Shown: positions 835 through 49,727, counted from the first letter of the stretch. The stretch is DNA of 64,000 bases from a virus (IMGVR_UViG_3300013947_000035:14009-78008), one strand, 5' to 3'. Made by a program: numbers and translations. Notes: generated from the sequence alone by a model not told the origin.

Positions 835-2517
835 ATGACGATATTAGAATGGCTGCGCGCGCGCGTACGTAACGTAGCGGGTTCGGTCGTAAAAACGAAG
901 CGACCCGACGATGAGCGAATGACGTTCATTAACGATAACGAAGCTATGGGGCGAATGAAGCTGAAAGAGTACGACGTGTGGTACGACGGCGACGGCGACG
1001 AGTTATTGAACTTTTACACAAGGCAGAACTATATCGGCTTCAATTACGAACCGTTTTATGCCCGCAACAAGAAGAATTATTTTTGGGCGATATCGAGTAC
1101 AGAAGCGCAGATAAAGCGAACGCATAGCGGACAGCCGCGAAACATAGTCGATACGTTGGTGAACATAATGCCGTTTCCTTTGGTGTCGTGTTCGGAATCG
1201 GACAAGTTGAAAGCGGTGATAACCGAGAGCGGATTGGAACAAGTATATAAAGACGAACAGTTGCCGCTGACGTTGGTCGAGGGCTGGGGCTGTTGGAAGA
1301 TAAATTGGGACAAAGACATAAGCGACTATCCGAGCGTCGAGTATGTATCGGCAGAGAACGTCGACTTCATATATAAGAACGGGAAAGTGATAGGGATTGT
1401 GTTCAAGAACTATTACACAAGCGAGAAGAAACGATACGTGCTGATGGAAACGAGGAGTATCGAATGGAAGCCGAAAGACGAAACTCTCACGCGCGCGCGT
1501 ACGCATGCGTACAATATATATAATGGCGGGGGTGAAGGAGAGAGAGTGTTGGTAATCACGAACGAATTGTTCGAATTGCCTGCGAACATGTCAACGGACG
1601 ATAATACGCCGCTGAAGAAAGTCGAGTTAGGAACTGTTTCAGCGCTGGCAGACGTCGAAGAAAGAATCGAAATCGGACCGTTTGATAAGTTGTTCGCCGT
1701 TCCTTGCATATTGTTAGGTAATACGAGCAAGCAGTGGGGTTATGGACGAAGCATATTCACAGGGAAAGTTGACTTGTTTGACGATTTGGACCAAGCGTTG
1801 TCACAGTCGTCGAATGCGGTAAGGTTGTCGACGCCGATAGAATACATAGACGAAGAATATCTTGACCGCGATAAGAACGGGTTGCCGAAGAAGCCACAAT
1901 CATATGACAGAAAGTACGTTATGATGAAAGGACAGAGGAACGGAGACGGAACGACGACAGGACAGCCCGTACAAGTGACACAGCCGAGTGTAGATTTTTC
2001 TCGATATAGCGACCACGCGATACAGATATTGTTGCAGATACTGAACGGCATATTGTCACCCGCGACGTTGGGAATCGACATAGCAAAGAAAGACAATGCC
2101 GCCGCCCAGCGTGAGAAAGAAAAGGTGACGATATTCACACGAAACGCGTTGATAAGCGGCGAAGAACGGATACTGCGTTCGCTTATGGAACAGTTGCTGA
2201 TGGCGAAAGAGTTTATGGATACGGGAGCGGTAAGTGTTCATTCGTATGACATCTCGGTAAAGTTCAACGAGTTTGCGGACGACAGCTTCGAGAACAAGTT
2301 GGAAGCGTTGGGGAAAGCATACGATATGGAAGAAATATCGACGGATATGTATCTGAACAAGTTGTATGGCGACACATTGAGCGACGAAGAACGGGCGGCG
2401 GAAAAAGAGTTTTTGGAATCGGCTCGTCAAGCGCGAACGGAAGCGTACTCGAACGCAGACGGCGGCGGGGCGAATACACAAGGGATGATAGACAACATCT
2501 TCGACAGAAAGAGGTGA
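835..2517 (+). CDS. portal protein (SPP1/A118-like)
   Basis: 560 aa; YGRSIF, DDLDQALS, ILNGILSPATLG and AAQREKEKVTIFTR resemble Firmicutes-phage portal motifs. Confidence 0.85.
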   Translation: MTILEWLRARVRNVAGSVVKTKRPDDERMTFINDNEAMGRMKLKEYDVWYDGDGDELLNFYTRQNYIGFNYEPFYARNKKNYFWAISSTEAQIKRTHSGQPRNIVDTLVNIMPFPLVSCSESDKLKAVITESGLEQVYKDEQLPLTLVEGWGCWKINWDKDISDYPSVEYVSAENVDFIYKNGKVIGIVFKNYYTSEKKRYVLMETRSIEWKPKDETLTRARTHAYNIYNGGGEGERVLVITNELFELPANMSTDDNTPLKKVELGTVSALADVEERIEIGPFDKLFAVPCILLGNTSKQWGYGRSIFTGKVDLFDDLDQALSQSSNAVRLSTPIEYIDEEYLDRDKNGLPKKPQSYDRKYVMMKGQRNGDGTTTGQPVQVTQPSVDFSRYSDHAIQILLQILNGILSPATLGIDIAKKDNAAAQREKEKVTIFTRNALISGEERILRSLMEQLLMAKEFMDTGAVSVHSYDISVKFNEFADDSFENKLEALGKAYDMEEISTDMYLNKLYGDTLSDEERAAEKEFLESARQARTEAYSNADGGGANTQGMIDNIFDRKR

Positions 2518-2534
2518 AAAGAAAGGCGAAAAAG

Positions 2535-2564
2535 AAAAGGTTGCGCTTGCAACCTTTTTCTTTT
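2535..2564. terminator. bidirectional intrinsic terminator
   Basis: AAAAGGTTGC-GCTT-GCAACCTTTT hairpin flanked by A and T tracts, right after the portal stop. Confidence 0.8.
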
Positions 2565-3122
2565 GCCGTCTTTCCTTTTACCATATTCATTACCGTGCTG
2601 GGGTTCGGGTCGGATAGGGAGTACCGTGCTAATGCGGGGATAAGAAAAGAAGGAAGCACAACGGCTTCCTTCTTATATATTTGCGGCGGGCGGGTGGGTG
2701 ATTGATGAGTTTAGAAGGGATACCGCTCGCCGCGATATTGGGGTGCAAAAGGAGTGCAAAAAGGCGATAAGGAAATACGAAGTATCACCGACAGCTGTTT
2801 TGTGGGGGATGGGGTACGGCTGGGTGTCAGCGTCGCCTAAATCCCTATCGCGATTTTGTAAGATAATTATAGCATAAACGGCGGCGGCTGTAAAGGGGGT
2901 TAGAGCAAAAATTTACGTCTACAAAATATCTACAAATGTATATTTATGCAGTATTTATGTATAATTATACATTAAGTACCGTGCCATATTCACCCCTATA
3001 CCGTGCTCGAATATATACCCGAAAAGGCGCGATTCCGATACCGTGCTAACATCATAAAAGAAAACAGCCGCCCTCGTGGACGACCGTTTTCCCTTTTAGG
3101 AGATATGCCAATGAATGAGCAA

Positions 3123-3308
3123 TCAGATGAATACGACGCGCGCCATTCCGTTCTCGCGATAGAACAGGACCTCGCCCGTTTCCGCGTCGATAATGTCAAC
3201 GACAGCGGGGTCGGATATGAGCGCGTAATAGATTGATTTCGTGTGTTCGATGTACCCGTCGCGATTCTTGAATCGGACCAGGATATTGTTGCTTTTGTTA
3301 GTAGCCAT
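3123..3308 (-). CDS. small early hypothetical protein
   Basis: 61 aa; AAAGGAGG RBS; own promoter. Confidence 0.75.
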   Translation of the reverse strand: MATNKSNNILVRFKNRDGYIEHTKSIYYALISDPAVVDIIDAETGEVLFYRENGMARVVFI

Positions 3309-3556
3309 AATGCCGCCAACCTCCTTTCGTATCTTTATTATACCATAATTATACCACGCAAGCCCGACGCTGTAAAGGGGGTTAGCGAAAATAATTGAGA
3401 TAAAAATCGGCTATCTATGGGGTATTTTATTACCGTGCTATATATACAGCAAGTTACGAGCAAGTACGATTTCGGTATTCTAACCGTGCTAATTTGGCAA
3501 AAAGAAAAGCGACGGCAAGTAATCGTGCCGCCGCCGTTCTCGTTTCGCGATTGCCT

Positions 3557-3829
3557 TCATCTCAGACTATTCGCGAGTTCGAAGCCTCTTGCGTGTCCGC
3601 AGTAGAAAATGTCGAGAAGTGTTTGCCACATTTCGTACGCGCTTCTGAAGTCGTTCGCGTTTCCGACGAATGTCGCTTCGGGGTTGTCGTCGGTATCGGT
3701 TTCATACTTCGTCAGGGTAAAGTAGAACGTTTCTGTGCCGTCGCCTGCCTTCTTCATTTCAAGAACGTTTCTGTGCCCCTTTAAGAGTCCGAGGTCTTTT
3801 GCTGCAATGATTTCATTTGGTTTGAACAT
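3557..3829 (-). CDS. early hypothetical protein
   Basis: 90 aa; AAGGAG RBS; own promoter and terminator. Confidence 0.8.
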   Translation of the reverse strand: MFKPNEIIAAKDLGLLKGHRNVLEMKKAGDGTETFYFTLTKYETDTDDNPEATFVGNANDFRSAYEMWQTLLDIFYCGHARGFELANSLR

Positions 3830-4058
3830 AGTGATGTTCTCCTTTGGTTTGATTTTGTACTCTCATTATATCATAATATCAAGCCGTTGTAAAGAGGGTT
3901 AGCAAAAATATTTCATACAATTTTTATACATTTTTTATACATATATGCACCGTGCAAAATATGCACATTGCTTCGGGCGCGATATAGTACCGTGCTATGT
4001 TTTTGGATATGGAAAAGCGACAGATTCAATTCTGTCGCTCTCTCGTCATATGAAATCC

Positions 4059-4346
4059 TTAATACGGCAATCCATAACCGCAAAGCAATGTTTGAGCGTT
4101 TGCGATTTGCTCAATATGCTCAATAAAGTTTCTTGAAATAGCAAAATCAACGGGGATTCTTGCGCTTCCGATATGCGTATTCCAGTCGAAATCCGCTTTG
4201 GAATTGACTTTCACACAAGCAGTGAAAACGTTTTTGTTGACTTCGATATAAACGGTTTTGCGTCCGACTTTGGCTTCAAAACGAGTTCTGCCAGAATCAA
4301 GTCCGTCGATATACAGTTGACCATAATTGAAATTGTGTTGCTTCAT
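4059..4346 (-). CDS. early hypothetical protein
   Basis: 95 aa; AAAGGA RBS; consensus promoter at 4382-4410. Confidence 0.8.
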   Translation of the reverse strand: MKQHNFNYGQLYIDGLDSGRTRFEAKVGRKTVYIEVNKNVFTACVKVNSKADFDWNTHIGSARIPVDFAISRNFIEHIEQIANAQTLLCGYGLPY

Positions 4347-4535
4347 AAAAAGTATATCCTTTTGTTTCTTTTGATACTCTTATTATACTACAACAACAAA
4401 TCGTTGTCAATAGATTTATAAAAAGAAAATTCGGAATTTTCGAATTATCTTATACCGCTACCGTGCTACTATGCCGTATCCGCCACGAGAGCGGATACGG
4501 AAAGCGACGGATTCTTGTTCCGCCGCCTTTTGATT

Positions 4536-4865
4536 TTAGTCTTTCCACGAGATTGAAGCAAAATCGATACTGCCGTCGCTGTTTAGTATCCGATAGACTT
4601 CTGCGTGTTCTCTGATGTCCGCGATTTGTTCCGCGATAATCTCGTTCACGCGTTCGAGTCCGATTTTGTCCTCGTACTCTTCGATATATGCTTCGTACTT
4701 ATATGAGTCTTTTCCGAGGTCGGATTCGTCGCCGTACGCGATAATTGAGTTTATCATTTGTCGCAGATACATTTCGTCCCTCAATCTGTATATTTCGGGG
4801 GTGCGCTCGTGTTTTGGCAAGCGAAAGGTCGATTTTAATTTTTCTTGAATTTGTTTGTCTGTCAT
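4536..4865 (-). CDS. early hypothetical protein
   Basis: 109 aa; GAGGTGG RBS. Confidence 0.8.
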   Translation of the reverse strand: MTDKQIQEKLKSTFRLPKHERTPEIYRLRDEMYLRQMINSIIAYGDESDLGKDSYKYEAYIEEYEDKIGLERVNEIIAEQIADIREHAEVYRILNSDGSIDFASISWKD

Positions 4866-4880
4866 AATACCACCTCTCTT

Positions 4881-5345
4881 TTATACAGATAGAACGTGAT
4901 ATGTTCCGAATTTTGCATAGAAAAAGTTCGTTTGCGTTATAATAAACTCTTTCAGTTCTTCTTCGGACATATTTCGCAATGTTTCGGCATCTTCTTTGCT
5001 GAATGCGTCACTGCTTGCAAGTTCTTCTATAAGGTCATATATGTTTTTGCTTGCCTTGCAATAATCGAATCCGATACAATCGAAAACTTCGTCGATGGTC
5101 TTGCATTTTTTGATAACGTCGATAACGTATTTTTCAAAGTCGTCGTCATCGAATACGTCTTTGTCGATATAGTCAACGTATATGCCGTTTACCCATATAA
5201 AGCAACCATATTCGTCAAGCGGTCTTAAAACTTTATTATAACTGTTTCTGCCTTGTTTTACAAGATAATTGAATTCGTTTTCGGTGTTGTCTTGCGGTTC
5301 GCTGATAACGACATCGAGGTCGTCGCTGATTTTAATTTGTTTCAT
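4881..5345 (-). CDS. acidic early hypothetical protein
   Basis: ORF 4881..5432; AAGGAG RBS favours start at 5345 (MKQIKISDD); upstream extension overlaps the promoter. Confidence 0.8.
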   Translation of the reverse strand: MKQIKISDDLDVVISEPQDNTENEFNYLVKQGRNSYNKVLRPLDEYGCFIWVNGIYVDYIDKDVFDDDDFEKYVIDVIKKCKTIDEVFDCIGFDYCKASKNIYDLIEELASSDAFSKEDAETLRNMSEEELKEFIITQTNFFYAKFGTYHVLSV

Positions 5346-5518
5346 AATCGTATCTCCTTTTGTTTCGGGGTTATCCCCTTTGATTGTCTTCATTATATCA
5401 TAATAGAAAACGCTTGTCAATAGGTTTATCAAAATTGTTTCGCAGATTTTCTCGGATAATATGTTACCGTGCTAAAAGGGTATAAGAAAAGAACGGCTTG
5501 CCGTCGCCGTTCTCGTTC

Positions 5519-5974
5519 TTAGTCTTCATATTCTTCGACTACTTGATTTTCAAATCCCCACTTACCAAAATACAAATTGTCTGCTCGTGGGGCTACAACT
5601 CGATTGTCCTCGTCGAGCATTGATTCCCATTCTGCGTACATATTCCAAATTGAAAACGCTCTCGATACATATCTTTGTCCTTTGCTGTTCGTATCATACA
5701 ATCCAACACAAACGGAAGCGGGGCAGATTGCTCTATCTTTGCCGTACTTGTTCTTAATCCAGCGTACGCAACGTCCAAACTCGATTCTGCAGCTGTCGCC
5801 AACGATGTCGTTGAATTCTTTGTTGATTTTCGCAAGCGTTTTTTCACCGCATTTCTTGCCGTCGTATTTCTTCAATACAAACTCGATAATAGGCGCAAGC
5901 TTGTGGAAGGTCGTCAAGTAAATAAGCGGGACTTCTTGGGTGCCATAGGATGCTGTGATTTCGTTCTTAATCAT
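5519..5974 (-). CDS. early hypothetical protein
   Basis: 151 aa; AAGGAG RBS; own promoter. Confidence 0.8.
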   Translation of the reverse strand: MIKNEITASYGTQEVPLIYLTTFHKLAPIIEFVLKKYDGKKCGEKTLAKINKEFNDIVGDSCRIEFGRCVRWIKNKYGKDRAICPASVCVGLYDTNSKGQRYVSRAFSIWNMYAEWESMLDEDNRVVAPRADNLYFGKWGFENQVVEEYED

Positions 5975-6175
5975 AATGGTTATCTCCTTTTGTTACGAGG
6001 TTTTCTTAACCTCTTTACATTTACAATTATAATACAATATCAAATGTTTGTCAATGGATTTTTATAAAGTTTTCAAAAAAATCGAGATTGTTTCGTCGTC
6101 GTTTCGTCGTCGTTTCGTCACCGTGCTATATGCGGCAGAGAAAACGGCGGGAGTTTTGTCCCGCCGCCGCCGTTC

Positions 6176-6415
6176 TCAAAATATTGCACCTGTCGCAAAC
6201 TTGTATGCGAGGTCTTCGATTTCGATTTCGTTATCGCCCACGTTCACAAACTCGTCAAAGCACCTGATGGCTTTCTGATGGTTGTGCCCAAAGCGTTCTA
6301 TCCATTCGCCCGTTCTCGGGGAATAACGCGTTACGATTGCGTTGCCGTTCTTGATGTCGACTTCGTACCTTACGTTGACTTTGGTTGCTTCGTCATAGCT
6401 TACTTTGATTATCAT
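6176..6415 (-). CDS. early hypothetical protein
   Basis: 79 aa; AGGAGG RBS; second gene of a two-gene cassette. Confidence 0.75.
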   Translation of the reverse strand: MIIKVSYDEATKVNVRYEVDIKNGNAIVTRYSPRTGEWIERFGHNHQKAIRCFDEFVNVGDNEIEIEDLAYKFATGAIF

Positions 6416-6418
6416 TGC

Positions 6419-6802
6419 TTACGCCTCCTTTGCGGTAATATTTACTGTCGCTACCCAACACACACTTCTAAACATAGCGTCGAGGTTGAGGCGGGGCTTG
6501 TTGATGTTCTTACGCACCCATTCGTACCATACCGATTTCGGCGTTTCGGTGTGCATTCTATAAAGCTTCGAGTCAAAGAATTCGTCGAGGTCTTCAAGAT
6601 TGCGCTTCAATTCGCCAATCTTGCGCCCGCTACGATTTGTCTTTTTAAGCTCTTTTGCGAGGTCGTAAGAAAAGTTGTAAAGGTCTTTGACGGATTGCAT
6701 TAGAATTGCGCCGTAAAGCGTCTCAGCGGCTTTGTCGTCTACGATATAGCTGCCGAAGCTTTGGTCGTCTTGTTCGATTGCTTGCGTTGTGATGTCTTTC
6801 AT
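6419..6802 (-). CDS. early hypothetical protein
   Basis: 127 aa; AAGGAG RBS; promoter at 6857-6885. Confidence 0.8.
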   Translation of the reverse strand: MKDITTQAIEQDDQSFGSYIVDDKAAETLYGAILMQSVKDLYNFSYDLAKELKKTNRSGRKIGELKRNLEDLDEFFDSKLYRMHTETPKSVWYEWVRKNINKPRLNLDAMFRSVCWVATVNITAKEA

Positions 6803-6988
6803 AAGTTATATCTCCTTCCGATTTCGGGCTTCGTTCGTTCCCTTATCTTCCCCTCCATTGTAATACCATACAAAATAATTGTCAAGCGATTTTTACAAAG
6901 TTTTTTTGCGATTTTGAAAATTTCTTTTTCGGCGGCGGGACAGTGATATTAATAGCACGGTGGCAGGATGAAAAGAAAAGCGGATGGC

Positions 6989-7381
6989 TTATACCTCCGC
7001 TTTCTCGTCTTCGTCTTCCTCGTCGTCAAGGATTTCTCTTATTTCGCTTCTTCCGAAGTCCTCGTCGTATTCAACTGCGTATTCGGCGATTTCACAAGCG
7101 AACCATCCGTCTGCATTGTCGGGGAAGTCGCTCGATACGACGTTGCCGTAACCATTGAACCAGAACCACATATGGTACGGATTGTAGTCACCGAACGCAA
7201 CCATATTCGCAATTTCGCTGGGCGTTTTCCCCGTCATAAGTTCGTCGAAGTCGTCTGTTGAATAGATATATTTCTCACCATTCACACTCTCTTGATATGC
7301 GTTGTTGACGTCTACGAGTTCGTTGTCGCTGAGTTCGTCGAGGATTGCTTCAATTGCTTTCATTTTTGTTTCTTGTGTCAT
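6989..7381 (-). CDS. highly acidic early protein (DNA-mimic candidate)
   Basis: 130 aa, about 35 D/E vs 7 K/R; contains F-x-F-N-G-Y-G-N motif seen in phage hypothetical proteins. Confidence 0.8.
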   Translation of the reverse strand: MTQETKMKAIEAILDELSDNELVDVNNAYQESVNGEKYIYSTDDFDELMTGKTPSEIANMVAFGDYNPYHMWFWFNGYGNVVSSDFPDNADGWFACEIAEYAVEYDEDFGRSEIREILDDEEDEDEKAEV

Positions 7382-7553
7382 AATAATAACTCCTTTTGTT
7401 TCGGTTGCTGTTTCTCAACCTCTTTACACTTAGGATTATATCACCATAGCAAACCGTTGTCAAGGGGTTTAGTAAAAATATTTTAGATTTTTTGAAAATT
7501 ATTCCGAAGCCACTAAACGCGATTTAAGCACGGTTACGGTTAAATTCGATAAC

Positions 7554-8003
7554 TTATTCGGAATCGATGCCAAAACCGCCTTGCTGTCGCTTACATTCGT
7601 TTCCCGAGTATGTTCCGATGATTGACAAGAACTCTTTCGTATAATTCGCTACGATTGTCTTCACTGCGTCTCTGTAAATTTCTTCAAGGTCAAGCATATT
7701 GCAAGAATGAGCAAGGTAAACGCAAATCATATTCCAAATCACCGCACCCGTAAACAGCACACCAAAAAAAACAGCGAATACGATTCCGCCAATGCGTTCG
7801 CCTTTGATAAAAAACAATGCCGATATACCTGCGACTACAAGCATAAACACGAGCCACTCTATCCAAACTCTAACGATGACTTTTCTACGTTGCTTTTTCA
7901 TACCGTGCTGGATTATGTCGTATTTGATTGCAGCTGCCGCCAATTCGTCTTTGAACTTCTGCGTTGCGATTCTGCATAAAATATCTTTTGCTGTCGTTTC
8001 CAT
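7554..8003 (-). CDS. two-TM membrane protein, near-leaderless
   Basis: Two hydrophobic segments (IEWLVFMLVVAGISALFF; IGGIVFAVFFGVLFTGAVIW); ATG 9 nt after the -10 box. Confidence 0.75.
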   Translation of the reverse strand: METTAKDILCRIATQKFKDELAAAAIKYDIIQHGMKKQRRKVIVRVWIEWLVFMLVVAGISALFFIKGERIGGIVFAVFFGVLFTGAVIWNMICVYLAHSCNMLDLEEIYRDAVKTIVANYTKEFLSIIGTYSGNECKRQQGGFGIDSE

Positions 8004-8108
8004 AGTGCTGATATTATACCACAAAGCCGCCGCCTTGTAAATAGGGTTAGCACGGTAACTTATATAAAAAAAGAACGGCTCGTCGCCGTTCTCGTTTTTT
8101 TGTTGTTA

Positions 8109-8357
8109 TTATTCAAGCGATATTGTTCTGATTTCGATTTCAATGGTTTCGTCATTGAATCCTTCTTCTGCCGTCCAATAAAAATACCTGTCGTTATTGT
8201 CTTCGATAACGCCGCTGTTGCCGCAACCATAATCGTTGATATACGTCTTTTTCATCGTTTCAAAAAACGCTTTCGCTTTCTCTTCCGTCGTAAATGCGTT
8301 TATGGTTGTGTTGCTTGTTCCGTCCGTTTCTGTTATCACTATGGCGTAAATGTCCAT
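8109..8357 (-). CDS. acidic early hypothetical protein
   Basis: 82 aa; AAGGAG RBS; own promoter. Confidence 0.8.
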   Translation of the reverse strand: MDIYAIVITETDGTSNTTINAFTTEEKAKAFFETMKKTYINDYGCGNSGVIEDNNDRYFYWTAEEGFNDETIEIEIRTISLE

Positions 8358-8533
8358 TGTTATTTCTCCTTTTGTTTCGGGGACTCTTGTTCCCCTTTGA
8401 ACAATTATATATTACCATAATATCAAATCATTGTCAAGCATATTTTGAAAATATTTTAGAATTTCTCAAAAACTTTTTGCCGCTCTCGATTCATAGCACG
8501 GCTGATAGGCAAAAAGAAAAGCGGCGACTTTCG

Positions 8534-9064
8534 TCAACCGCCTATCGATATGAGATTGTCAAGCCAAACGGTGATAAGTGTCGGCGCACCCGATTTCGAT
8601 TGCTTGCCAACCACTTTCTCGATGTCGTCTTTGTTGGTGAACTCCGCACCATTCACAAACCATTTCGATTTCGTCTTCGTTGCCGTTTTGCTGTTGAACA
8701 ACTTCACCTTGTACTTAATCTCGCCCTCTTTCTCGTTCTTGATAAGCAAGTTTTCGTAACCGCTCAATGGTGTGTCATATGCGCTCGTTCTCGATGGTGT
8801 GTCCTTATCCGCCGCCACAACTCTTGTGAGATAGTCCGATGTGTGTCTATAATCGATTCCAAGCCTTGCCACGCACTCGCTATACTTCTCAACCATTGTT
8901 GCCCCGTTCTCTTTCTCGTATCCTTTCAAAGCCCTTTTCTCGCTCTTGTACGCAACCTTAACATATGCGCCTTTCTTGATTTCGTTGCTATCAAACATCG
9001 ATTTAATGGTGTTCAATCTCTCGTCTGCGGTCATTCCGTCAAAAACAACTTTTTTCATAATCAT
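8534..9064 (-). CDS. basic early hypothetical protein
   Basis: 176 aa, Lys-rich; AAGAGG RBS; own promoter. Confidence 0.8.
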   Translation of the reverse strand: MIMKKVVFDGMTADERLNTIKSMFDSNEIKKGAYVKVAYKSEKRALKGYEKENGATMVEKYSECVARLGIDYRHTSDYLTRVVAADKDTPSRTSAYDTPLSGYENLLIKNEKEGEIKYKVKLFNSKTATKTKSKWFVNGAEFTNKDDIEKVVGKQSKSGAPTLITVWLDNLISIGG

Positions 9065-9260
9065 ACCTCTTTTGTTTTATTCCGTTGTCGGTCTTTCAAC
9101 CTCTAACACTTACGATTATAATACCATAACAAATAAATGTCAAGCATATTTCGCAATTATTTTAGACAATTTCATTTTTACCCCTACTGATGGGTAAAAT
9201 CGATTCATAGCACGGCTACTATTATAAAAAGAAGAACGGCTTGCTACCGTTCCTCTTATA

Positions 9261-9587
9261 TCAATCTGTTGTTCTCAAATAGTATTTTATATCTTCGCCT
9301 TTGAGATTGTTCATACACCATTCGTCAATGCGTTCCCATAGTTCGTTATAAACTCTTGCCAGTTTTTCGTTTCTTTCGTAGTGTTCCCAAATCTTCCAGT
9401 TCGTTGCCATTGACAATTCGGTCACATACACAACATTGTCTTTCCAGCTCTCGAACGCTCTCTCGAACGTTTCTTTTACCGCTTCGATACCAAATCTTTC
9501 CGCTATCGAAAAGTCCATATAAAAAGTCGTTTGCGGTTTGTAGCCTGTCATTTCTTCGATGTTCCAGTTCTTAAAAGCTTGTAGCAT
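9261..9587 (-). CDS. conserved phage hypothetical protein (TTFYxDFSIA...NWKIWEHY type)
   Basis: AAGGAG RBS favours start at 9587; motif recalled from gut-phage proteins of unknown function. Confidence 0.8.
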   Translation of the reverse strand: MLQAFKNWNIEEMTGYKPQTTFYMDFSIAERFGIEAVKETFERAFESWKDNVVYVTELSMATNWKIWEHYERNEKLARVYNELWERIDEWCMNNLKGEDIKYYLRTTD

Positions 9588-10028
9588 AATTTTAACTCCT
9601 TTCGTTTCGAGGTTCTTATGTCCTCTTTGATTGTTTTTATTATAACATAGTATCAAGTCGTTGTCAATAGATTTTGATAAAATATTTTTACAATTTCATT
9701 TTTGTGTCCTGCCGATACAAGCACGGTTGCCGCCACTGTATCCGCCGCCGAACAAAGAAAGAGGACGGTCACCTTTCGATGCCGTCCTGCCTTTCGTTGA
9801 CTTGTTGATTCCAGCGGTCTGACTCGCTGCGGATGGGTGTCAACTGTCCTCGCCTGTCCATTGAGTCGTAACAATTTCTTTCTTTTTCCCTTTGCTACGT
9901 CTATATATTATCACAACAACCAACCATTGTCAAGCGGATTAACAAAGTTTTTAATTTATTTTAATTCTTTTTAATTCGTTTTAATTTTTGGCTCGTTTTT
10001 AAGAAAATACTCTCTTTTGAATCTCACA

Positions 10029-10800
10029 AAAGAACCAAAAGAACAATAGAAAGAAAACGTGTACGTAGTACACGCAAAAGAAAGAACATAAGAAAAGGTA
10101 CAAATAACCATATTGACAAACGCTAAACGCTATCGACAAATGATTGATATGCCCTGCGCTGAATCCGTTCTCATACCCACTTACACTATATATAAGTAAT
10201 ATCTACTACTATGCACGGTTTCACAAAATCTCTATCCGCAAGAAAAGGTGCCCCAAAAGAATCAAAAGAACAATAGAAAGAAAAAGGTATACGTAGTATA
10301 CCTACAAAGAAAGAACATAAGAAAAGTTATGAAACATTTTTTCAAAAGGCAAAGTTATATACTACGTATATAAAAGCAAAATTTCCAAAACATCTTCCGA
10401 GTTCTTTTTTTGATTATTAATTGAAAAAAGTAAATATTATATACTACGTATATATTATTTACATTTTTCAGTTAATTTCGGCACGTTTTGTAAACTGTCC
10501 GCGCGTAAAGGAGCTTCTTTTTTTTATCTTCCCTCACGATTTTTCTTCCTTGCGCGTAGATAATTTATAAAAACACTAAAAATTAACTGAAAAATGTAAA
10601 TAATATATACGTAGTATATAATATTTACTTTTTTCAATTAATAACCGAAAAAAATTCTCGGAAGATGTCGGTTTTATCAAATCCTTTATATACAAAGTAT
10701 ATAATCCGAAAATCTGTCAAGTAGGTTTAGCACTCTTCTTATGTTCTTTCTTTTGAGGACGATACATAGTATCGTCCTTTTTCTTTCTATTGTTCTTCTG
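10029..10800. repeat. AT-rich nested direct/inverted repeat region (origin-like)
   Basis: Three ~70-bp AAGAACAATAGAAAGAAAA-[hairpin]-AAAGAAAGAACATAAGAA units (10029 and 10256 direct; ~10733-10800 inverted) flank a perfect 65-bp inverted repeat (10414-10478 / 10580-10644). Confidence 0.9.
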
Positions 10801-10924
10801 CTTCTTTTGTTGTTATCTTTTCTTGCAACAGTCTTTTTGTGAAACATTGCACGGCTGCCTCAAAACATAAAAAACGACGACGGATTCATTCCCGTCGCCG
10901 CTTCCGATTCTTGCTTGTGTTTGA

Positions 10925-11353
10925 TTAGTATTCAAGCAAATCTTCTAACTCGTATTCGAACCAATGCGCTATTGTCGCCATTGCAAACTCGAACTGCCAT
11001 TGCGCCAACCTTATCTTGTTAAATGCGCCGTAACACAATGGGTCATTCTTGTCCATTCCGTCAATGTCCATAGGATTGATTCCGCCGTCGTCTGCGAGGT
11101 TATCGTTAATTTCAAGACGATGCTTCTCAAAGTAGTCGATTGCGAACTTGATGTCACCATACATTTCTGTTCTGACTTTTTTACCATTCGCACTATCGAC
11201 AATGAGTTGTGTCAAATCGTCAAGGTTGTGTTCGATTGCCTCATTGTTCAAATACAAAACTGCTTCCGATACTGCATCGTCGCACAAAATGGAATCGTAA
11301 CCATTGCCGTTTGCTGTTGCGTTAAGTTGTTCTCTGCTGATTTTTTTCGCCAT
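10925..11353 (-). CDS. acidic early hypothetical protein
   Basis: 142 aa; GAGG RBS; own promoter. Confidence 0.8.
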   Translation of the reverse strand: MAKKISREQLNATANGNGYDSILCDDAVSEAVLYLNNEAIEHNLDDLTQLIVDSANGKKVRTEMYGDIKFAIDYFEKHRLEINDNLADDGGINPMDIDGMDKNDPLCYGAFNKIRLAQWQFEFAMATIAHWFEYELEDLLEY

Positions 11354-11507
11354 ATGGCATTTCCTCTGCGTTCGTGGGCTTCATTCGTTCCCTTTGAACA
11401 ATTCTATATTATCACCATATCAAATAATTGTCAACTACTTTTTTGTCATTTTCGTAAACTTTTTTCAAAATATTGTATTTCGGCGGCGGCTATGGTAAAA
11501 TACTCGT

Positions 11508-12278
11508 ATGAAAAAGCAAACTTACACCCCAACCAAAGCAACCACACAACTGATGGCGACCATAGCAAAAGGCGTAAACGAGAACCGCCGCCTGTCCGAT
11601 ATTGACGATGCGATACGCACGGTCGTGAACTCGTATACGGGATTGAATCGTCGCGAACGCTCTCGTCTGATGCATAATGCGTTCGATATGGCTCGTCGCG
11701 TTAAGGCTAACGGCATTGACGAACTCGCTTCCCGAACTGCTTACGACTCGTTTATGGCTACTTCTCGAAAGGTTATGGCTACGGCTGACACTCGGAATAA
11801 AATGGTTACGCTCTCGTCCGATATTGCTGACTTCGAAAACGAAAGAGGCTATGAACCGATATTCTTTGCTTGCTCGTATCATTCGAACTGCTCTTGCGGT
11901 CACGACGATTATCAAGGCAAAATCTACGTCGATAGGTTTTGGCGTACAAAAGTCAATGGCACGGATTATTATCGCGTACTCTCGTATATCAAGAATCGCA
12001 ATATCAAAACCGTTCAATCCGTCGTCAAGTCGCCGATATGGCTGACGACTCGTCCATACTGCCGCCATTACTTCGTCCCTGTTTCGACTGCTGATGTTCT
12101 CGGCTCGTCTCCGAAAAAGATACTCCACGACTACAACGCTTACCATTACACACCCGACTACTACACCAACGATGAATACTTCCGCATTCGTTCTGATGTG
12201 TATACTGAACTGAACCGACTCGTTCCTGCACCTGAATTCAAGACGATGATAGAACGCAGTCGCCGCCGCAGACATTAA
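11508..12278 (+). CDS. minor capsid / head morphogenesis protein (gp7/MuF-like)
   Basis: CSYH-x-C-x-C-x-H..YQGKIY and TRPYCRHYF metal-binding motifs typical of minor capsid protein 2 / gp7 C-terminal domains. Confidence 0.7.
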   Translation: MKKQTYTPTKATTQLMATIAKGVNENRRLSDIDDAIRTVVNSYTGLNRRERSRLMHNAFDMARRVKANGIDELASRTAYDSFMATSRKVMATADTRNKMVTLSSDIADFENERGYEPIFFACSYHSNCSCGHDDYQGKIYVDRFWRTKVNGTDYYRVLSYIKNRNIKTVQSVVKSPIWLTTRPYCRHYFVPVSTADVLGSSPKKILHDYNAYHYTPDYYTNDEYFRIRSDVYTELNRLVPAPEFKTMIERSRRRRH

Positions 12279-12331
12279 GCACGGCTGACGACGTAAAAGA
12301 AAAGCGACGGATTTGCTGCCGTCGCTCTTTT

Positions 12332-12583
12332 TTATTCCTCATCATCCTCCTCGTCTTCGTCCTCGTTGCCGATTCCCAACCATTCGTAAACAGTTTCGGA
12401 ATCGAACCTTAGTAAGTCGTTCAACTCTGTTTCGGTGATTCCGTCGGGATACATTTCTTCGAGAATGTTTTCGAGTTGTTCCCAACCGTCTTCGCCCTTT
12501 TCTTCCCAAATACGATTTGCCGTATCGACTGCGCCGCTCCAAAACTTAAAATTCGCCAAACTTGTTTCGCTGATAATTTTCAT
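12332..12583 (-). CDS. highly acidic early protein (DNA-mimic candidate)
   Basis: 83 aa, 27 D/E vs 5 K/R; F-x-FWSGA and TELNDLLRF motifs. Confidence 0.8.
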   Translation of the reverse strand: MKIISETSLANFKFWSGAVDTANRIWEEKGEDGWEQLENILEEMYPDGITETELNDLLRFDSETVYEWLGIGNEDEDEEDDEE

Positions 12584-12881
12584 AATGATTTTCTCCTTTC
12601 GTTTCGGGACTCTTTCGTTCCCTTTGAACGATTATATATTATCATAATACCAAACCGTTGTCAAGAGGTTTTTGAAAATATTTTAGATAATTTCATTTTT
12701 GCCCATTCAACGGGTAAAAATCACTTGTCGCTTTCGACAACGCTTTGCACGGGGCTTGTTTTCCAGCGACAAATTTTTTTTTGATGCGCGTTTCCAGCGA
12801 CAAGGGTTTTGCACGGTTGCGTTTTTCAAAGACAAAAAAAATAGCGGTCGATTTTCTCAACCGCTACTTCCTATTGTTTTT

Positions 12882-13181
12882 TTATGCAAGCAATGCAATT
12901 TGCGCTTCCGCTTTCTTCGATGTCATTATGCAACCTTTACCAAACACAACTTCGCCCGCTTTCTTTGCTTTTTCGATGTTCCCAACGAGTTCAAGAGGTA
13001 CGATTCCGTAAACCTCATAATCGCCAACACCCTCAACCCAAAAGCCCATATTAGTTTTGTTGTCGTAACATCTTCCGAGTTTGCAACCCCATTGAATTGC
13101 CCATACGTTATAAAGTCTTGAATCGATAACCATTGTGATGTCACCTTTGAAAAATCCTTTGTTACTTGTGATTGATGTCAT
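12882..13181 (-). CDS. early hypothetical protein
   Basis: AAGGAG RBS favours start at 13181 (MTSITSNKGFF); first cassette of the leftward array. Confidence 0.8.
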   Translation of the reverse strand: MTSITSNKGFFKGDITMVIDSRLYNVWAIQWGCKLGRCYDNKTNMGFWVEGVGDYEVYGIVPLELVGNIEKAKKAGEVVFGKGCIMTSKKAEAQIALLA

Positions 13182-13476
13182 AATCGTATCTCCTTTCGCT
13201 TCGGTTGCTGATTCCCTCAACCTCTTTACATTTACAATTATATCACCATAGCAAATATTTGTAAAGCGATTTTAGCATATTAAATCAAAAAAAATAATTT
13301 TTTTTCGAGCCCGTATCTGCGCCCGATTCCGCCGACGCACTCAAAGCCGATTCCTTGCACGGTAGCCGTTGAGACGAACACTTTATCTATGCCACGCCGA
13401 CACTGCCCTAATGCTCGCTACAAGCCGTTATATGCCCACACAAGCCCACAAGCGCAAGACCAAATAAGGACCGATA

Positions 13477-13553
13477 GGGGGTAGGGGTAGCAAGGGGTTT
13501 CGAGAGGGGGGGTGGGTATCATATAATGCTTCCCCGTCCCCGACCCCACCCCC
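13477..13553. other. paired G-quadruplex-forming tracts on opposite strands
   Basis: G5-TA-G4-N6-G4-N8-G7-T-G3 (13477-13516) followed by C4-GT-C4-GA-C4-A-C5 (13532-13553). Confidence 0.7.
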
Positions 13554-13838
13554 GCGAACGGATTTGACACACAGAGGGTATGCGTCAGCGTACTCTCTTG
13601 GATTCAGCTCACCCCGTCTCGAAAATTTTGCAGGTCGGGAATGAGAACGAATTTGACCCAAAGGCGCAAGTGCAACGAAGCGGGAAAATATACAAAAATG
13701 GGGCATAAATATACACGAAGCCAAAAAAGTTTGAAAAAAGTATTGCGTTTTTGAGATTAGTGTGTTAGGATTGAGGGTAGACAGGACCGAAGTCGTAAAA
13801 ATCGGGTATAACTCTAAATTTTAACGAGGTGTAGCAGA

Positions 13839-14597
13839 ATGAACGAAGAAGAAAAGAAGAGACTGAGTGACACTGAAGTCGATAGTGGCGAGAACGCGAA
13901 TGGCGCGGAATCGTCAGTAGCGAGTTCAGAAGTTGCGAACGGACAACCCGAACCGCAAGCAGAAACGGAAACGGAACCCACAACGGAACCCGAAGCGGAA
14001 GCGGCGTCAGTCTCAGATGATAGCGTTGACGGAAGCGAGAACGGACAACCCGAACCCGAACAGGAACAGCAACCGACGGAAAAGATGCTTACTCAGAGCC
14101 AAGTGAACGAACTTGTAGGCAGGGCGAGGCAAGAGGGGAGAGAGAGTGCCTTGAAAGAGCTATATGGACGTTATGGTGTAAGCGACGATACGGAGTTGAA
14201 TGACGTGTTTGGACGTGGACAAGCGTATATGTCTTTGGATGACGATTACAAAGTACAGCAAAGCAGCAACAAAGCGTTGTTGGCAGAGAATGCGTTATTG
14301 AAGACGAAAGTCGACGAGAGCAGGTGGGAAGATATAAAAGCAATCCTCGGCAGCAAGAATTTGGACATCACGCCTGAGAACATTGAAGCTGAAATCCCGA
14401 CGCACCCCGAATGGCGACAAGGCAATAGTGTCAATGTGGTGCAAGATTCACAACAGCAAGCAGTACCGCAACAGCAGCAACAGCAACAGCAAGCGGTATT
14501 GAGAAAGCTTGGAAGCGAATCGACGACAAACGGCGACGGTAGCGAAGAAGAGGAAGAACAAGAACGAGCATTTAGATTGTTCGGCTTTAATAAATAA
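13839..14597 (+). CDS. capsid scaffolding protein
   Basis: Acidic disordered N-terminus; KMLTQSQVNELV motif; coiled coil; just upstream of the capsid gene. Confidence 0.8.
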   Translation: MNEEEKKRLSDTEVDSGENANGAESSVASSEVANGQPEPQAETETEPTTEPEAEAASVSDDSVDGSENGQPEPEQEQQPTEKMLTQSQVNELVGRARQEGRESALKELYGRYGVSDDTELNDVFGRGQAYMSLDDDYKVQQSSNKALLAENALLKTKVDESRWEDIKAILGSKNLDITPENIEAEIPTHPEWRQGNSVNVVQDSQQQAVPQQQQQQQQAVLRKLGSESTTNGDGSEEEEEQERAFRLFGFNK

Positions 14598-35240: not shown

Positions 35241-36308
35241 ATGAAAGCATTCAAGACCAGAATATACCCAAATGCGGAACAAACCGTTTTAATCGAAAAG
35301 ACTTTCGGTTGTTGTCGCTTTGTCTATAATAATGGTCTTGAATGTAAAATTGATGCCTATAAGAAAGATAAAACGAACCTATCTGCTTATGATTTGATAA
35401 AAAGAATCACAACTCTTAAAAAAGAATTCGAGTGGTTGAAAGAAGTCGAATTGCACACATTGCAGCAGTCGATTCTTGATTTAGAAAAAGCATATAAGAA
35501 CTTTTTTAGAGAACATAAGGGATTCCCTAAATTCAAGAAGAAAGGCGACAAAGATAGTTTTAGGACGTTTAATATGCGTTTTGTATCACGTCATTTCATT
35601 TATCTTCCGAAAATTGGAGCGGTAAAAATTGCCGAAAAGATAAAAAAGAAGTGGAGCATACATAATGCGACTATAAGCAAAAGAGCAGGGAAGTATTTTA
35701 TCTCGCTATTAATCGATTACGAATCACCAAAAGTCCAAAAGACAGGTGAAGTTGTCGGAATCGATTTAGGCATTAAGACATTTGCGACCTTGTCAGATGG
35801 AACTAAATATGAGAACCCAAAGACATTAAGCAAATACGAGGACAAGATTGCAAGATATCAACGACAATTAAGTCGAACTCAAAAAGGAAGTAACAATCGC
35901 AAAAAGGTTAAAGAGAAATTAGCCCGATTGCATTTGAAAGTATCTAACATTCGGCAAGACTATTTGCATAAAATGAGCCGCGAGATAGCCAATCGTTACT
36001 CGTTTGTTGCGATAGAGGATTTAAATATTGCAGGAATGGTTAAGAATCACAATTTAGCCAAGAGCATATCCGATTGCAGTTGGGGCGAATTCGTCCGTAT
36101 GCTCGAATATAAATGCTCGTGGTATGGTTGTGAACTGCGTAAAATCGGTCGATTTGAACCCAGTAGCAAGTTGTGTTCAAATTGCGGATATAAGATGAAC
36201 GAAATTCCGTTAAATATCCGAAAATGGACTTGTCCTAATTGCGGGACGCACCACGACCGAGACGTAAACGCCGCAATAAATATTTTGAATATAGCACAAG
36301 AAAAATAA
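35241..36308 (+). CDS. tnpB: RNA-guided endonuclease TnpB (IS200/IS605/IS607 family), no tnpA
   Basis: HTH N-terminus (KTRIYP, FGCCRFVYN); RuvC residues GIDLG / IEDL / DRDVNAA intact; CxxC..CxxC zinc finger. Confidence 0.95.
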   Translation: MKAFKTRIYPNAEQTVLIEKTFGCCRFVYNNGLECKIDAYKKDKTNLSAYDLIKRITTLKKEFEWLKEVELHTLQQSILDLEKAYKNFFREHKGFPKFKKKGDKDSFRTFNMRFVSRHFIYLPKIGAVKIAEKIKKKWSIHNATISKRAGKYFISLLIDYESPKVQKTGEVVGIDLGIKTFATLSDGTKYENPKTLSKYEDKIARYQRQLSRTQKGSNNRKKVKEKLARLHLKVSNIRQDYLHKMSREIANRYSFVAIEDLNIAGMVKNHNLAKSISDCSWGEFVRMLEYKCSWYGCELRKIGRFEPSSKLCSNCGYKMNEIPLNIRKWTCPNCGTHHDRDVNAAINILNIAQEK

Positions 36309-49376: not shown

Positions 49377-49727
49377 ATGATACGCAAAAAAGACATAAAC
49401 GAAATCAATTCCAAACTCGACGCGCTTTCGGGACAAGTTATTAAAAAAGCGACAGCATACGATAGGGAACACGATTTCTTGAAAGAAATCAAAGTCAATA
49501 TCGCAAAATGTTCGGTCATTTTCGATGAAAAGTCAATTCGATATGCAGTCAAAATCGAATACGATTTCGCCCCGACAATACTTTATATCGAAGACGACGG
49601 CGAGGCTACGCTCAACGAAAGATTGCGAGCGATAAACGAATTGAGATTGATTCCGACAAATCAACTCGACCAAATTCAATTTGCAATCGAGAGGGCAAAA
49701 AAATTAAATGCAGGAGGAACAGAGTGA
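49377..49727 (+). CDS. hypothetical protein
   Basis: 116 aa; GAGG RBS. Confidence 0.7.
   Translation: MIRKKDINEINSKLDALSGQVIKKATAYDREHDFLKEIKVNIAKCSVIFDEKSIRYAVKIEYDFAPTILYIEDDGEATLNERLRAINELRLIPTNQLDQIQFAIERAKKLNAGGTE

Follow-up and report, generated by a model that had tools for sequence, protein, structure and literature searches.

The early region of an uncultured phage is crowded with copies of one short word, CCGTGC, which reads forward in one half of the region and in reverse in the other, and this raises the question of what sets the strand of each copy and which machinery reads it. The phage is represented by the IMG/VR contig IMGVR_UViG_3300013947_000035 (78,008 bp), and bases 14009-78008 of this contig form the 64,000-nucleotide window that was analysed; coordinates are window positions unless stated otherwise. 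The whole genome carries 30 copies of CCGTGC, all of them in the window, and 27 are found within 2593-13362, a block between the portal gene and the scaffold and major head genes (13839 onward, + strand). The 8-mer ACCGTGCT occurs 15 times in this block and nowhere else in the genome, and words of the CCGTGC/ACCGTGCT type are the most enriched 6-, 7- and 8-mers of the block. Outside the block, three copies of CCGTGC are observed, where Markov models of orders 1 to 3 predict 16-19; at order 4 the prediction falls to 5.2, as the 5-mers CCGTG and CGTGC are depleted in their own right, to about 0.4-fold. A preliminary description of this DNA had reported around 25 copies in about 10.8 kb and a scarcity of the word elsewhere; the genome-wide k-mer statistics, with 27 copies counted and 3 of 30 lying elsewhere, confirm this observation, which proved stronger than first reported. 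A literature search with the word forms ACCGTGCT, AGCACGGT, CCGTGC and GCACGG retrieved nothing relevant.

The strand of the word changes with its position in the block. The left arm consists of 12 cores, all on the + strand, which start at 2593, 2624, 2979, 3001, 3041, 3433, 3484, 3950, 3990, 4461, 5467 and 6121 (span 2593-6126) and follow the consensus (y)TA-CCGTGC-TA. The right arm comprises 14 cores on the - strand, located at 6955, 7528, 8050, 8496, 9210, 9721, 10213, 10849, 11617, 11959, 12279, 12747, 12811 and 13357 (span 6955-13362). The switch described earlier is thus real: 12 of 12 copies read '+' at 2593-6126 and 14 of 15 read '-' at 6955-13362 (Mann-Whitney test on positions, p = 9e-6), the sole exception being a '+' core at 7903-7908 (ATACCGTGCTGG) inside the minus-strand open reading frame (ORF) 7554-8024, which belongs to a short mixed zone around the switch (6127-8050). 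The core is asymmetric; its flanks are clearly weaker than the core itself, more so in the right arm than in the left, and in the clade of the window the 3' flank of the word reads CCGTGCTATAT.

The copies avoid the early coding sequence and keep a defined distance to the transcription signals. Coding sequence makes up 59% of the block, yet just 3-4 of the 27 cores are ORF-internal (p = 2e-6) and 23-24 are intergenic; those of the left arm all lie between transcription units, with two or three copies in each of the gaps closest to the portal gene. The placement next to terminators, which had been noted before, could be put into numbers: a survey of 179 sites in nine genomes, read in gene direction, places the start of the core 12-18 nt (mode 14) past the first T in the T-run of the preceding terminator, and this applies to both orientation classes. 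The distance from the core to the next -35 hexamer is broader and quantised at about 10.3 bp (Rayleigh test, p = 6e-5 and 4e-3), and the DNA between the two is phased A-tract DNA.

The array is a property of a whole phage family. These uncultured phages, with genomes of about 65-80 kb, keep 20-33 copies of CCGTGC almost only in one stretch of 7-15 kb at the side of the portal gene. The preliminary description had proposed a comparison with relatives, and at least 13 of them, with portal identities down to 45%, share the word, its polarity and the same order of a '+' arm, a mixed centre and a '-' arm. Seven IMG/VR contigs with portals 69-94% identical to that of the window have no copy in the 10 kb before the end of the portal gene, followed by '+' copies and then by '-' copies. 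The block contains 23 of 24 copies of the contig in G001, 25 of 27 in G002, 32 of 33 in G003 and 24 of 26 in G004; the control word CGTGCC is present 13-15 times in the complete genomes G001 and G002. A profile search reached portals at 45-51% identity, and neither the hexamer nor the architecture had changed there: all 30 copies of G006 (80,434 bp) are located within 12.5 kb and all 33 copies of G007 (63,523 bp) within 13 kb. Three more complete genomes, which were found via their replicase, carry 18 of 21, 23 of 23 and 20 of 20 copies directly beside the portal gene, in a domain of only 7-9.5 kb. The number of copies outside the domain is 0-3 per genome. In the 11 genomes tested, '+' copies lie to the left of '-' copies (area under the curve 0.92-1.00; p between 1e-6 and 8e-4), and the three further complete genomes have the same layout, giving 14 genomes in total with a '+' arm, a mixed centre and a '-' arm. 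The hexamer stays constant despite differing base composition and portal identities of 45-50%; gene order within the block is shuffled between relatives, and a distant clade has other genes in place of all early ORFs of the window.

Position in the domain, and not transcription, determines the orientation of the word. In the window, '+' copies occupy gaps between minus-strand genes, and '-' copies occur within a + strand gene, ORF 11508-12278, which encodes a protein of 256 amino acids and is the only gene of the block that is conserved throughout the family. It contains two '-' cores and has a further one at its stop codon. The frame is 88% conserved in a relative versus 62% for the overlapping minus frame, and the gene corrects the earlier statement that all genes face the same way. 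Searches of Pfam, NCBIfam and PDB sequences gave no match for the 256-amino-acid protein; only a fold search against viral models was informative, in which its AlphaFold model (30 homologues, pLDDT 91.6) matched viral "minor capsid / head morphogenesis" proteins with probabilities of 0.9-1.0 and low TM-scores, so that the product is probably a minor capsid protein of the MuF/SPP1 gp7 type. The gene is seemingly leaderless: about 7 nt separate the end of a TTGTAT-17-TAAAAT promoter from its ATG (11470-11510). The claim that gene orientation cannot account for the switch holds, since the strand of the copies in this one family of + strand genes changes with the arm: they are '+' where the gene occupies the left arm and '-' where it occupies the right.

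The portal gene, which forms the left border (835-2517, + strand), has no copy in the window's phage, and its homologue in relatives at 45-69% identity has 4-9 '+' copies. In distant relatives the MuF-like gene directly follows the portal gene, and both genes together contain 8-10 '+' copies in 2.4-2.6 kb, where 0.05-0.14 would be expected. These copies fall in all three reading frames, and at one coding position the DNA word is retained although the protein reads T-R-A in some cases and T-V-Q in others. In the clade of the window, and also in G002 and G003, the MuF-like gene is located in the right arm and bears '-' copies, at codons that differ between lineages and are not homologous. The strand of the word in the MuF-like gene thus follows the position of the gene while frames and codons vary, and the word is therefore selected at the DNA level inside late genes. 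Intergenic copies behave in the same way. A syntenic gap between two conserved genes has a '-' copy in the window and in L006, and a '+' copy within a non-homologous upstream module in L001, L002 and L005; the strand likewise differs after a second conserved terminator, and the gene at the switch of L007 has a '+' copy past its terminator, where the window has a '-' copy. No conserved sequence is tied to the switch, which falls in different non-homologous intergenic modules in close relatives and beside different genes in others. The strand rule and the copies in late genes exclude that the word is an operator of the neighbouring promoter or an element acting at the RNA level. The binding site for a silencer or partition protein, which had been suggested for the word, is possible only in an orientation-dependent form; the suggested directional reading that converges near 6.5 kb fits the data.

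A second rule governs the local order of the copies. Some relatives have a mixed zone of several kb, where every gap contains a pair of opposite copies with a spacing of 25-80 bp. Of the adjacent opposite pairs no more than 130 bp apart, 17 have the order GCACGG..CCGTGC and none the reverse, which means that the local order of a pair is the reverse of the global order of the arms. Same-direction doublets and triplets are frequent at the portal edge.

The domain in which the word is embedded is made up of small early genes. About 18 small ORFs on the minus strand (3123-13181) mostly possess their own promoter, an intrinsic terminator and upstream phased A-tract DNA; most of the promoters are close to the consensus TTGACA/TTTACA-17-TATAAT, and the block contains 16 consensus-like minus-strand promoters with matching terminators. 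Apart from a weak winged-helix match in 12332-12583, no known domain was detected in the early ORFs. Promoter and 5' untranslated region (5'-UTR) modules recur across the block, and an Rfam search of 2400-14000 gave only matches at chance level. One consensus early promoter at 2894-2866 (- strand) reaches a terminator at 2674-2647 after about 190 nt with no ORF in between; this transcribed segment is rich in G- and C-runs, and 2647-2894 (- strand) may encode a small early RNA, for which Rfam has no match. Two A/T-rich nested-palindrome elements free of ORFs, at 9960-10850 of the window and at 11,760-12,700 of the genome (L013), lie about 12 kb apart and are direct copies with 78% identity over about 430-470 bp, each inverted internally. 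The former sits in the right arm and the latter precedes an early-type + strand promoter; the elements could be origins, non-coding RNAs or elements resembling injection stops. At the right edge of the array (12725-12830), a palindrome TTGTCGAAAGCGACAA contains the Spo0A-box-like TGTCGAA, and CCAGCGACAA repeats adjoin doubled copies of the motif. The right border is non-coding (13363-13838) and comprises a conserved palindrome of G-runs and C-runs, two or three copies of GCGAACGnATTT and the head-gene promoter. Within it, the segment 13440-13800, found also in L011, L009 and L010, shows the imperfect G-run/C-run palindrome, then two to three times GCGAACGnATTTrrC and then a TTGCA-type -35 with an extended -10 TGTGTTAGGAT; given its location upstream of the scaffold gene, it resembles a head-operon promoter with possible activator sites. 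Elsewhere in the genome, the phage encodes four proteins of DNA methyltransferase families, a Tad3-like Thoeris inhibitor, RtcB and TnpB (35241-36308), and relatives of TnpB were located on further phage-like contigs. Outside the motif block, the hexamers AGTACT, ATGCAT and GAGCTC do not occur, and TTTAAA, CAATTG, CTCGAG and CTTAAG are all but missing.

Further observations concern the relatives and the limits of the family. In the distant clade (L017, L016, L015; e.g., L017 14000-18000), the gaps around CCGTGC are also filled with GGATACAG/CTGTATCC, GATTCAGGA and ATGATTCAT repeats, which the clade of the window does not have. G007 retains the portal, the replicase and the motif domain, and no homologue of the large terminase subunit (TerL) of the window was detectable in it (E < 1e-10); the packaging enzyme thus seems to have been exchanged within the family. 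The end of the G004 contig at the right border was considered as a physical terminus and rejected: positions 1-45 of L012, the start of this contig, are a Nextera transposase adapter (CTGTCTCTTATACACATCT) joined at the centre of a G/C palindrome, and an untrimmed adapter indicates an assembly break. Contig starts are arbitrary. A near-identity DNA search with the block in a phage collection gave no match, and protein searches with the portal and TerL found only distant phages of Firmicutes. One match in a genome collection is a contig of a metagenome-assembled genome labelled Bacteroidaceae, which is probably mis-binned and clashes with the Shine-Dalgarno and sigma-A signals of the phage. An IMG/VR scan for paired 8-mers revealed at least one more family member (L048), and most of the matches listed were chance or tandem coding repeats. 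Among the matches listed was also an unrelated phage, G009 (38.6 kb), which shares no proteins with the phage of the window and has ACCGTGCT-like iterons; a 1.2-kb non-coding region (L142, 16,160-17,380) is dense in the words ACCGTGCT, ACCATGCT and ACCGTGTT (two one way and seven the other) and in CGGCAAC repeats, probably a set of operators or iterons that belongs to G009 itself.

The word is constant across diverged portals, replaced early genes and varied base composition, which speaks for a reader that belongs to the conserved core of the phage. The only plausible conserved candidate that was found is the replicase, a protein of 834 amino acids (51870-54374, + strand) composed of an NrS-1-type primase-polymerase, a helix-bundle domain, D5_N and a superfamily 3 (SF3) helicase. 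It matches the NrS-1 primase-polymerase structures 7OLA, 6A9W, 6K9A and 7RR3 (E = 9e-35 to 5e-34) and the Pfam family PF22763 (NrS1-1_pol-like_HBD; 3e-29) as well as D5_N and DUF5906. The enzyme is 48-94% identical in the relatives from which a homologue was recovered, which include seven of seven complete genomes, and no DNA polymerase of family A or B was found among the Pfam matches of 70 other proteins. Other candidates fared less well. TerL has no detectable homologue in G007, and the helix-turn-helix (HTH) protein near 49724, which had been suggested for binding assays, is not conserved throughout the family, as this 116-amino-acid protein (49377-49727) is missing from G007. A protein of 223 amino acids was considered as a sigma factor and rejected: its HTH resembles region 4 only, region 2 is missing, and no homologue of it could be detected in distant relatives. 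For the NrS-1 polymerase, priming hinges on a recognition word in the template, either the 8-nt TTTGGTTA or 5'-GTG-3' (PMC7102993, PMC8718748), and the helix-bundle domain of pRN1 ORF904 reads GTG (PMC8718748). The NrS-1 genome is reported to have one copy of the recognition word per strand near its centre, which was proposed to be the origin (PMC7102993, PMC8718748). The phage thus encodes the same type of enzyme with a helix-bundle domain, and its array resembles the sites of NrS-1 gp28 and pRN1 ORF904 in that a strand-specific word contains GTG (CC-GTG-C), a match of three bases that is weak alone, and in that copies on opposite strands flank a centre, the arrangement reported for the putative NrS-1 origin.

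Tentatively, and as the leading explanation although one that falls short of being probable, the CCGTGC array may be regarded as a dispersed, outward-firing start zone for the phage's own replicase, a reader that the preliminary description had not taken into account; this is a proposal that extends to the reader, the direction of firing and the origin function alike. Here, (y)TA-CCGTGC-TA would be a strand-specific recognition site that marks a two-armed domain of 7-15 kb, from the portal to the scaffold gene, in which the early genes are housed. The helix-bundle domain would recognise the word with its GTG core on a single-stranded template, and the replicase would begin de novo DNA synthesis just 5' of the word; priming on single-stranded TACCGTGCTA or TTACCGTGCTA is predicted to be strong, strand-specific and dependent on the core. 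The '+' copies of the left arm would launch synthesis leftward and the '-' copies of the right arm rightward, so that all starts exit the domain and replication becomes bidirectional. In a GCACGG..CCGTGC pair, the start sites would lie at the edges of one small bubble with the intervening stretch as template for both, and the 17:0 ratio would arise because both templates lie between the words, the reverse order requiring melting outside the pair. GC-rich terminator hairpins about 8-12 nt away, together with the A/T-rich curved DNA upstream of the early promoters, may help to make the sites accessible or to present them. Initiation of stray strands at copies elsewhere would account for the avoidance of the word outside the domain. 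A stable hairpin near the recognition word recalls single-strand initiation signals such as the origin of phage G4, and by this resemblance the fixed hairpin spacing of 12-18 nt in both orientations is counted in favour of the start zone.

Several points weigh against such a start zone. The proposed link between enzyme and word consists of three shared bases and of co-occurrence, and as portal, replicase and array occur together in every complete genome, co-occurrence cannot separate the candidate readers. The extended words of NrS-1 differ from CCGTGC apart from GTG, and two copies are reported for NrS-1 versus 20-33 copies spread over 7-15 kb here, embedded between early transcription units and inside late genes; the NrS-1 record contains TTTGGTTA once and related words in an ambiguous arrangement, which makes it unusable for a comparison of pair order. 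Furthermore, the sites are in duplex DNA, which leaves the route to single strands unexplained, the A/T-rich tract of the right arm is not on the side of the site that the proposed direction of synthesis would call for, and outward forks of the right arm would meet early transcription head-on. The near-exclusion from early ORFs, which was also computed with a crude gene caller, and the phasing of about 10.3 bp would suit a bound regulatory protein equally well. The idea that the domain is a terminus opposite the origin was rejected on arithmetic from the coordinates: measured from the replicase gene, its centre is 32-42% of the way around the circle and not at the antipode.

Other readers would account for parts of the pattern. 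It seems unlikely, though deserving of attention, that the word is a polar barrier or insulator of the stoperator or Tus-Ter kind, at which some phage-encoded or DNA-delivered protein stops RNA polymerase, a helicase or the replisome from one side only and so fences the early domain. The confinement of the sites to DNA that is not transcribed early (gaps past terminators and late genes), the quantised distance to the -35, the avoidance elsewhere and the redundant copies at the portal edge agree with a barrier, and the stoperators of cluster A mycobacteriophages (L5 gp71, TipsytheTRex repressor) are likewise short and asymmetric, number in the tens, occupy small gaps between genes and function in an orientation-dependent way (PMC9283540). 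However, stoperators are distributed genome-wide and oriented with transcription, whereas the word is restricted to one domain and oriented by position, ignoring transcription when it stands as '-' inside a + strand late gene and as '+' between minus-strand genes. No conserved DNA-binding candidate was found, and neither an integrase nor a repressor family of the kind expected for stoperator-type immunity is among the Pfam matches of 70 proteins, the early ORFs being devoid of known domains. Two opposed groups of polar sites that converge on a zone independently of gene direction are also known from the FtsK-orienting polar sequences (KOPS) and SpoIIIE recognition sequences (SRS) at dif, from Ter/Tus and from RTP. 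Unlike KOPS and SRS, CCGTGC is not of the G-rich type, there is no conserved dif-like site at the switch, and the switch moves between close relatives. A fork trap of the Ter/Tus or RTP kind was rejected on the grounds of the interleaved centre: with the local pair order opposing the global one, either blocking face would leave DNA unreplicated between arrested forks that never meet. It is more doubtful that the copies are Chi-like sites for a host helicase-nuclease of the AddAB/RecBCD type, oriented to attenuate degradation and promote recombination from ends that flank the domain (a long terminal repeat) or lie in the mixed centre. In favour of Chi, the polarity of the array is positional, statistical and independent of genes, with a mixed centre; many redundant copies are present, densest at the portal edge, and copies are tolerated in coding DNA. 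A precedent exists in the terminally clustered Chi arrays of phages LLS and MD8, in which the most over-represented short word of the phage is clustered, oriented and present in tens of copies (PMC12315714). Those arrays have a single orientation toward one end and consist of the known Chi of the host, whereas the array described here has two opposed arms, a strict pair order and avoidance elsewhere. A Chi function would not predict the strict GCACGG..CCGTGC order, the avoidance of both orientations elsewhere or the fixed terminator spacing. Moreover, Chi varies between genera, and the word is constant in relatives of differing base composition with probably different hosts; the terminase, of the Terminase_3/PBSX type, is usually headful and is not conserved in G007; and the phage has its own exonuclease, single-stranded DNA-binding protein (SSB) and RecU-like genes, a module that LLS-type phages do not have. 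Two bolder schemes, which taken together we regard as improbable, would make the array either an orientation-coded architectural system, equivalent to convergent CTCF sites, in which convergent sites are paired by a bridging protein or by a stalled loop-extruding motor and a divergent pair stands at each loop boundary, or a set of dozens of dispersed outward start words with which the replicase has replaced a compact origin. The specific form in which the early domain becomes a hairpin or rosette, through the pairing of convergent sites by a bridging protein or a loop-extruding motor, appears very improbable. The arms do converge globally while local pairs are always divergent, so that each gene of the centre is bracketed by convergent sites, and the sites avoid the rest of the genome and lie in DNA that is not transcribed early; but the argument is purely geometric, no protein emerged as a candidate, and we know of no phage or bacterial precedent for orientation-coded loop anchors.

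Explanations that do not invoke a polar reader find still less room. The word might be a passenger in recombining intergenic promoter/terminator cassettes, with a polarity that is merely historical. The setting is indeed that of the promoter early stem-loop (PeSL) elements of T4-type phages, in which a repeated promoter and a stem-loop flank each of the small early ORFs, which are reshuffled from one relative to the next: promoter/5'-UTR modules recur in the block, gene order is shuffled, and whole upstream modules are exchanged at syntenic gaps. This describes the surroundings of the polar word only, and to our knowledge PeSLs have no separate polar word that is oriented by position and enters late genes. 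The 8-10 copies selected in three frames of the portal and MuF-like coding sequence largely refute the passenger explanation; the strand flip by position within one gene family, the 17:0 pair rule and the survival of the exact word through the turnover of early genes also speak against it, and we give it very little credence. Hardly any weight can be given, either, to a promoter-like role, in which the word would be an extended -10 (TG-n-TATAT) used by a modified or alternative RNA polymerase holoenzyme and would drive sense transcription in the right arm and antisense transcription in the left. It is suggested by the 3' flank in the clade of the window and by the opposite pairs, which are always divergent, as promoters would be. 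However, the TATAT flank is lost in distant relatives while CCGTGC is retained, for which reason the extended -10 promoter (CCG-TG-C-TATAT) was dropped; in addition, conservation does not extend to the -7 T of the -10 hexamer, the genome yielded no sigma region 2, and the selection of antisense copies within a late structural gene would make no regulatory sense. The least probable explanation, to the point of being negligible, is that of decoy or target sites for a non-palindromic restriction-modification (RM), bacteriophage exclusion (BREX) or Type III/ISP system, which the preliminary description had listed as decoys. The genome does show extreme avoidance of restriction sites (CCGG, GATC, GGCC and CTAG are absent from the 78 kb and CATG is at 0.13-fold), and CCGTGC is depleted outside the block. 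Targets would be purged, though, and yet the 20-33 copies are kept in the domain and selected in coding sequence, and sites in both orientations are what renders DNA sensitive to Type III and ISP enzymes. As such specificities vary by strain, a hexamer that is constant in phages with portals 45-50% identical and of differing base composition argues for a conserved reader and not for a strain-specific restriction system.

For the biology of this phage family, the meaning of the array depends on its reader. If the replicase reads the word, the array would be the first natural map of initiation words for a self-priming polymerase of the NrS-1 type, enzymes that are of biotechnological interest, and it would reveal a dispersed, direction-coded origin zone that is coupled to early transcription. 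If the reader is something else, the array would signal a hitherto unknown polar DNA-tracking process in phage infection. Polar words read by DNA-tracking machines are known mainly from bacterial chromosomes (Chi, KOPS, Ter) and from few phages (Chi arrays, stoperators), and the family described here provides a clean example, in which a hexamer stays constant while the neighbouring early genes are replaced, has its strand set by position and is written into the coding sequence of portal and minor-capsid genes. The word also provides a simple marker for finding members of this phage family and the borders of their host-takeover region.

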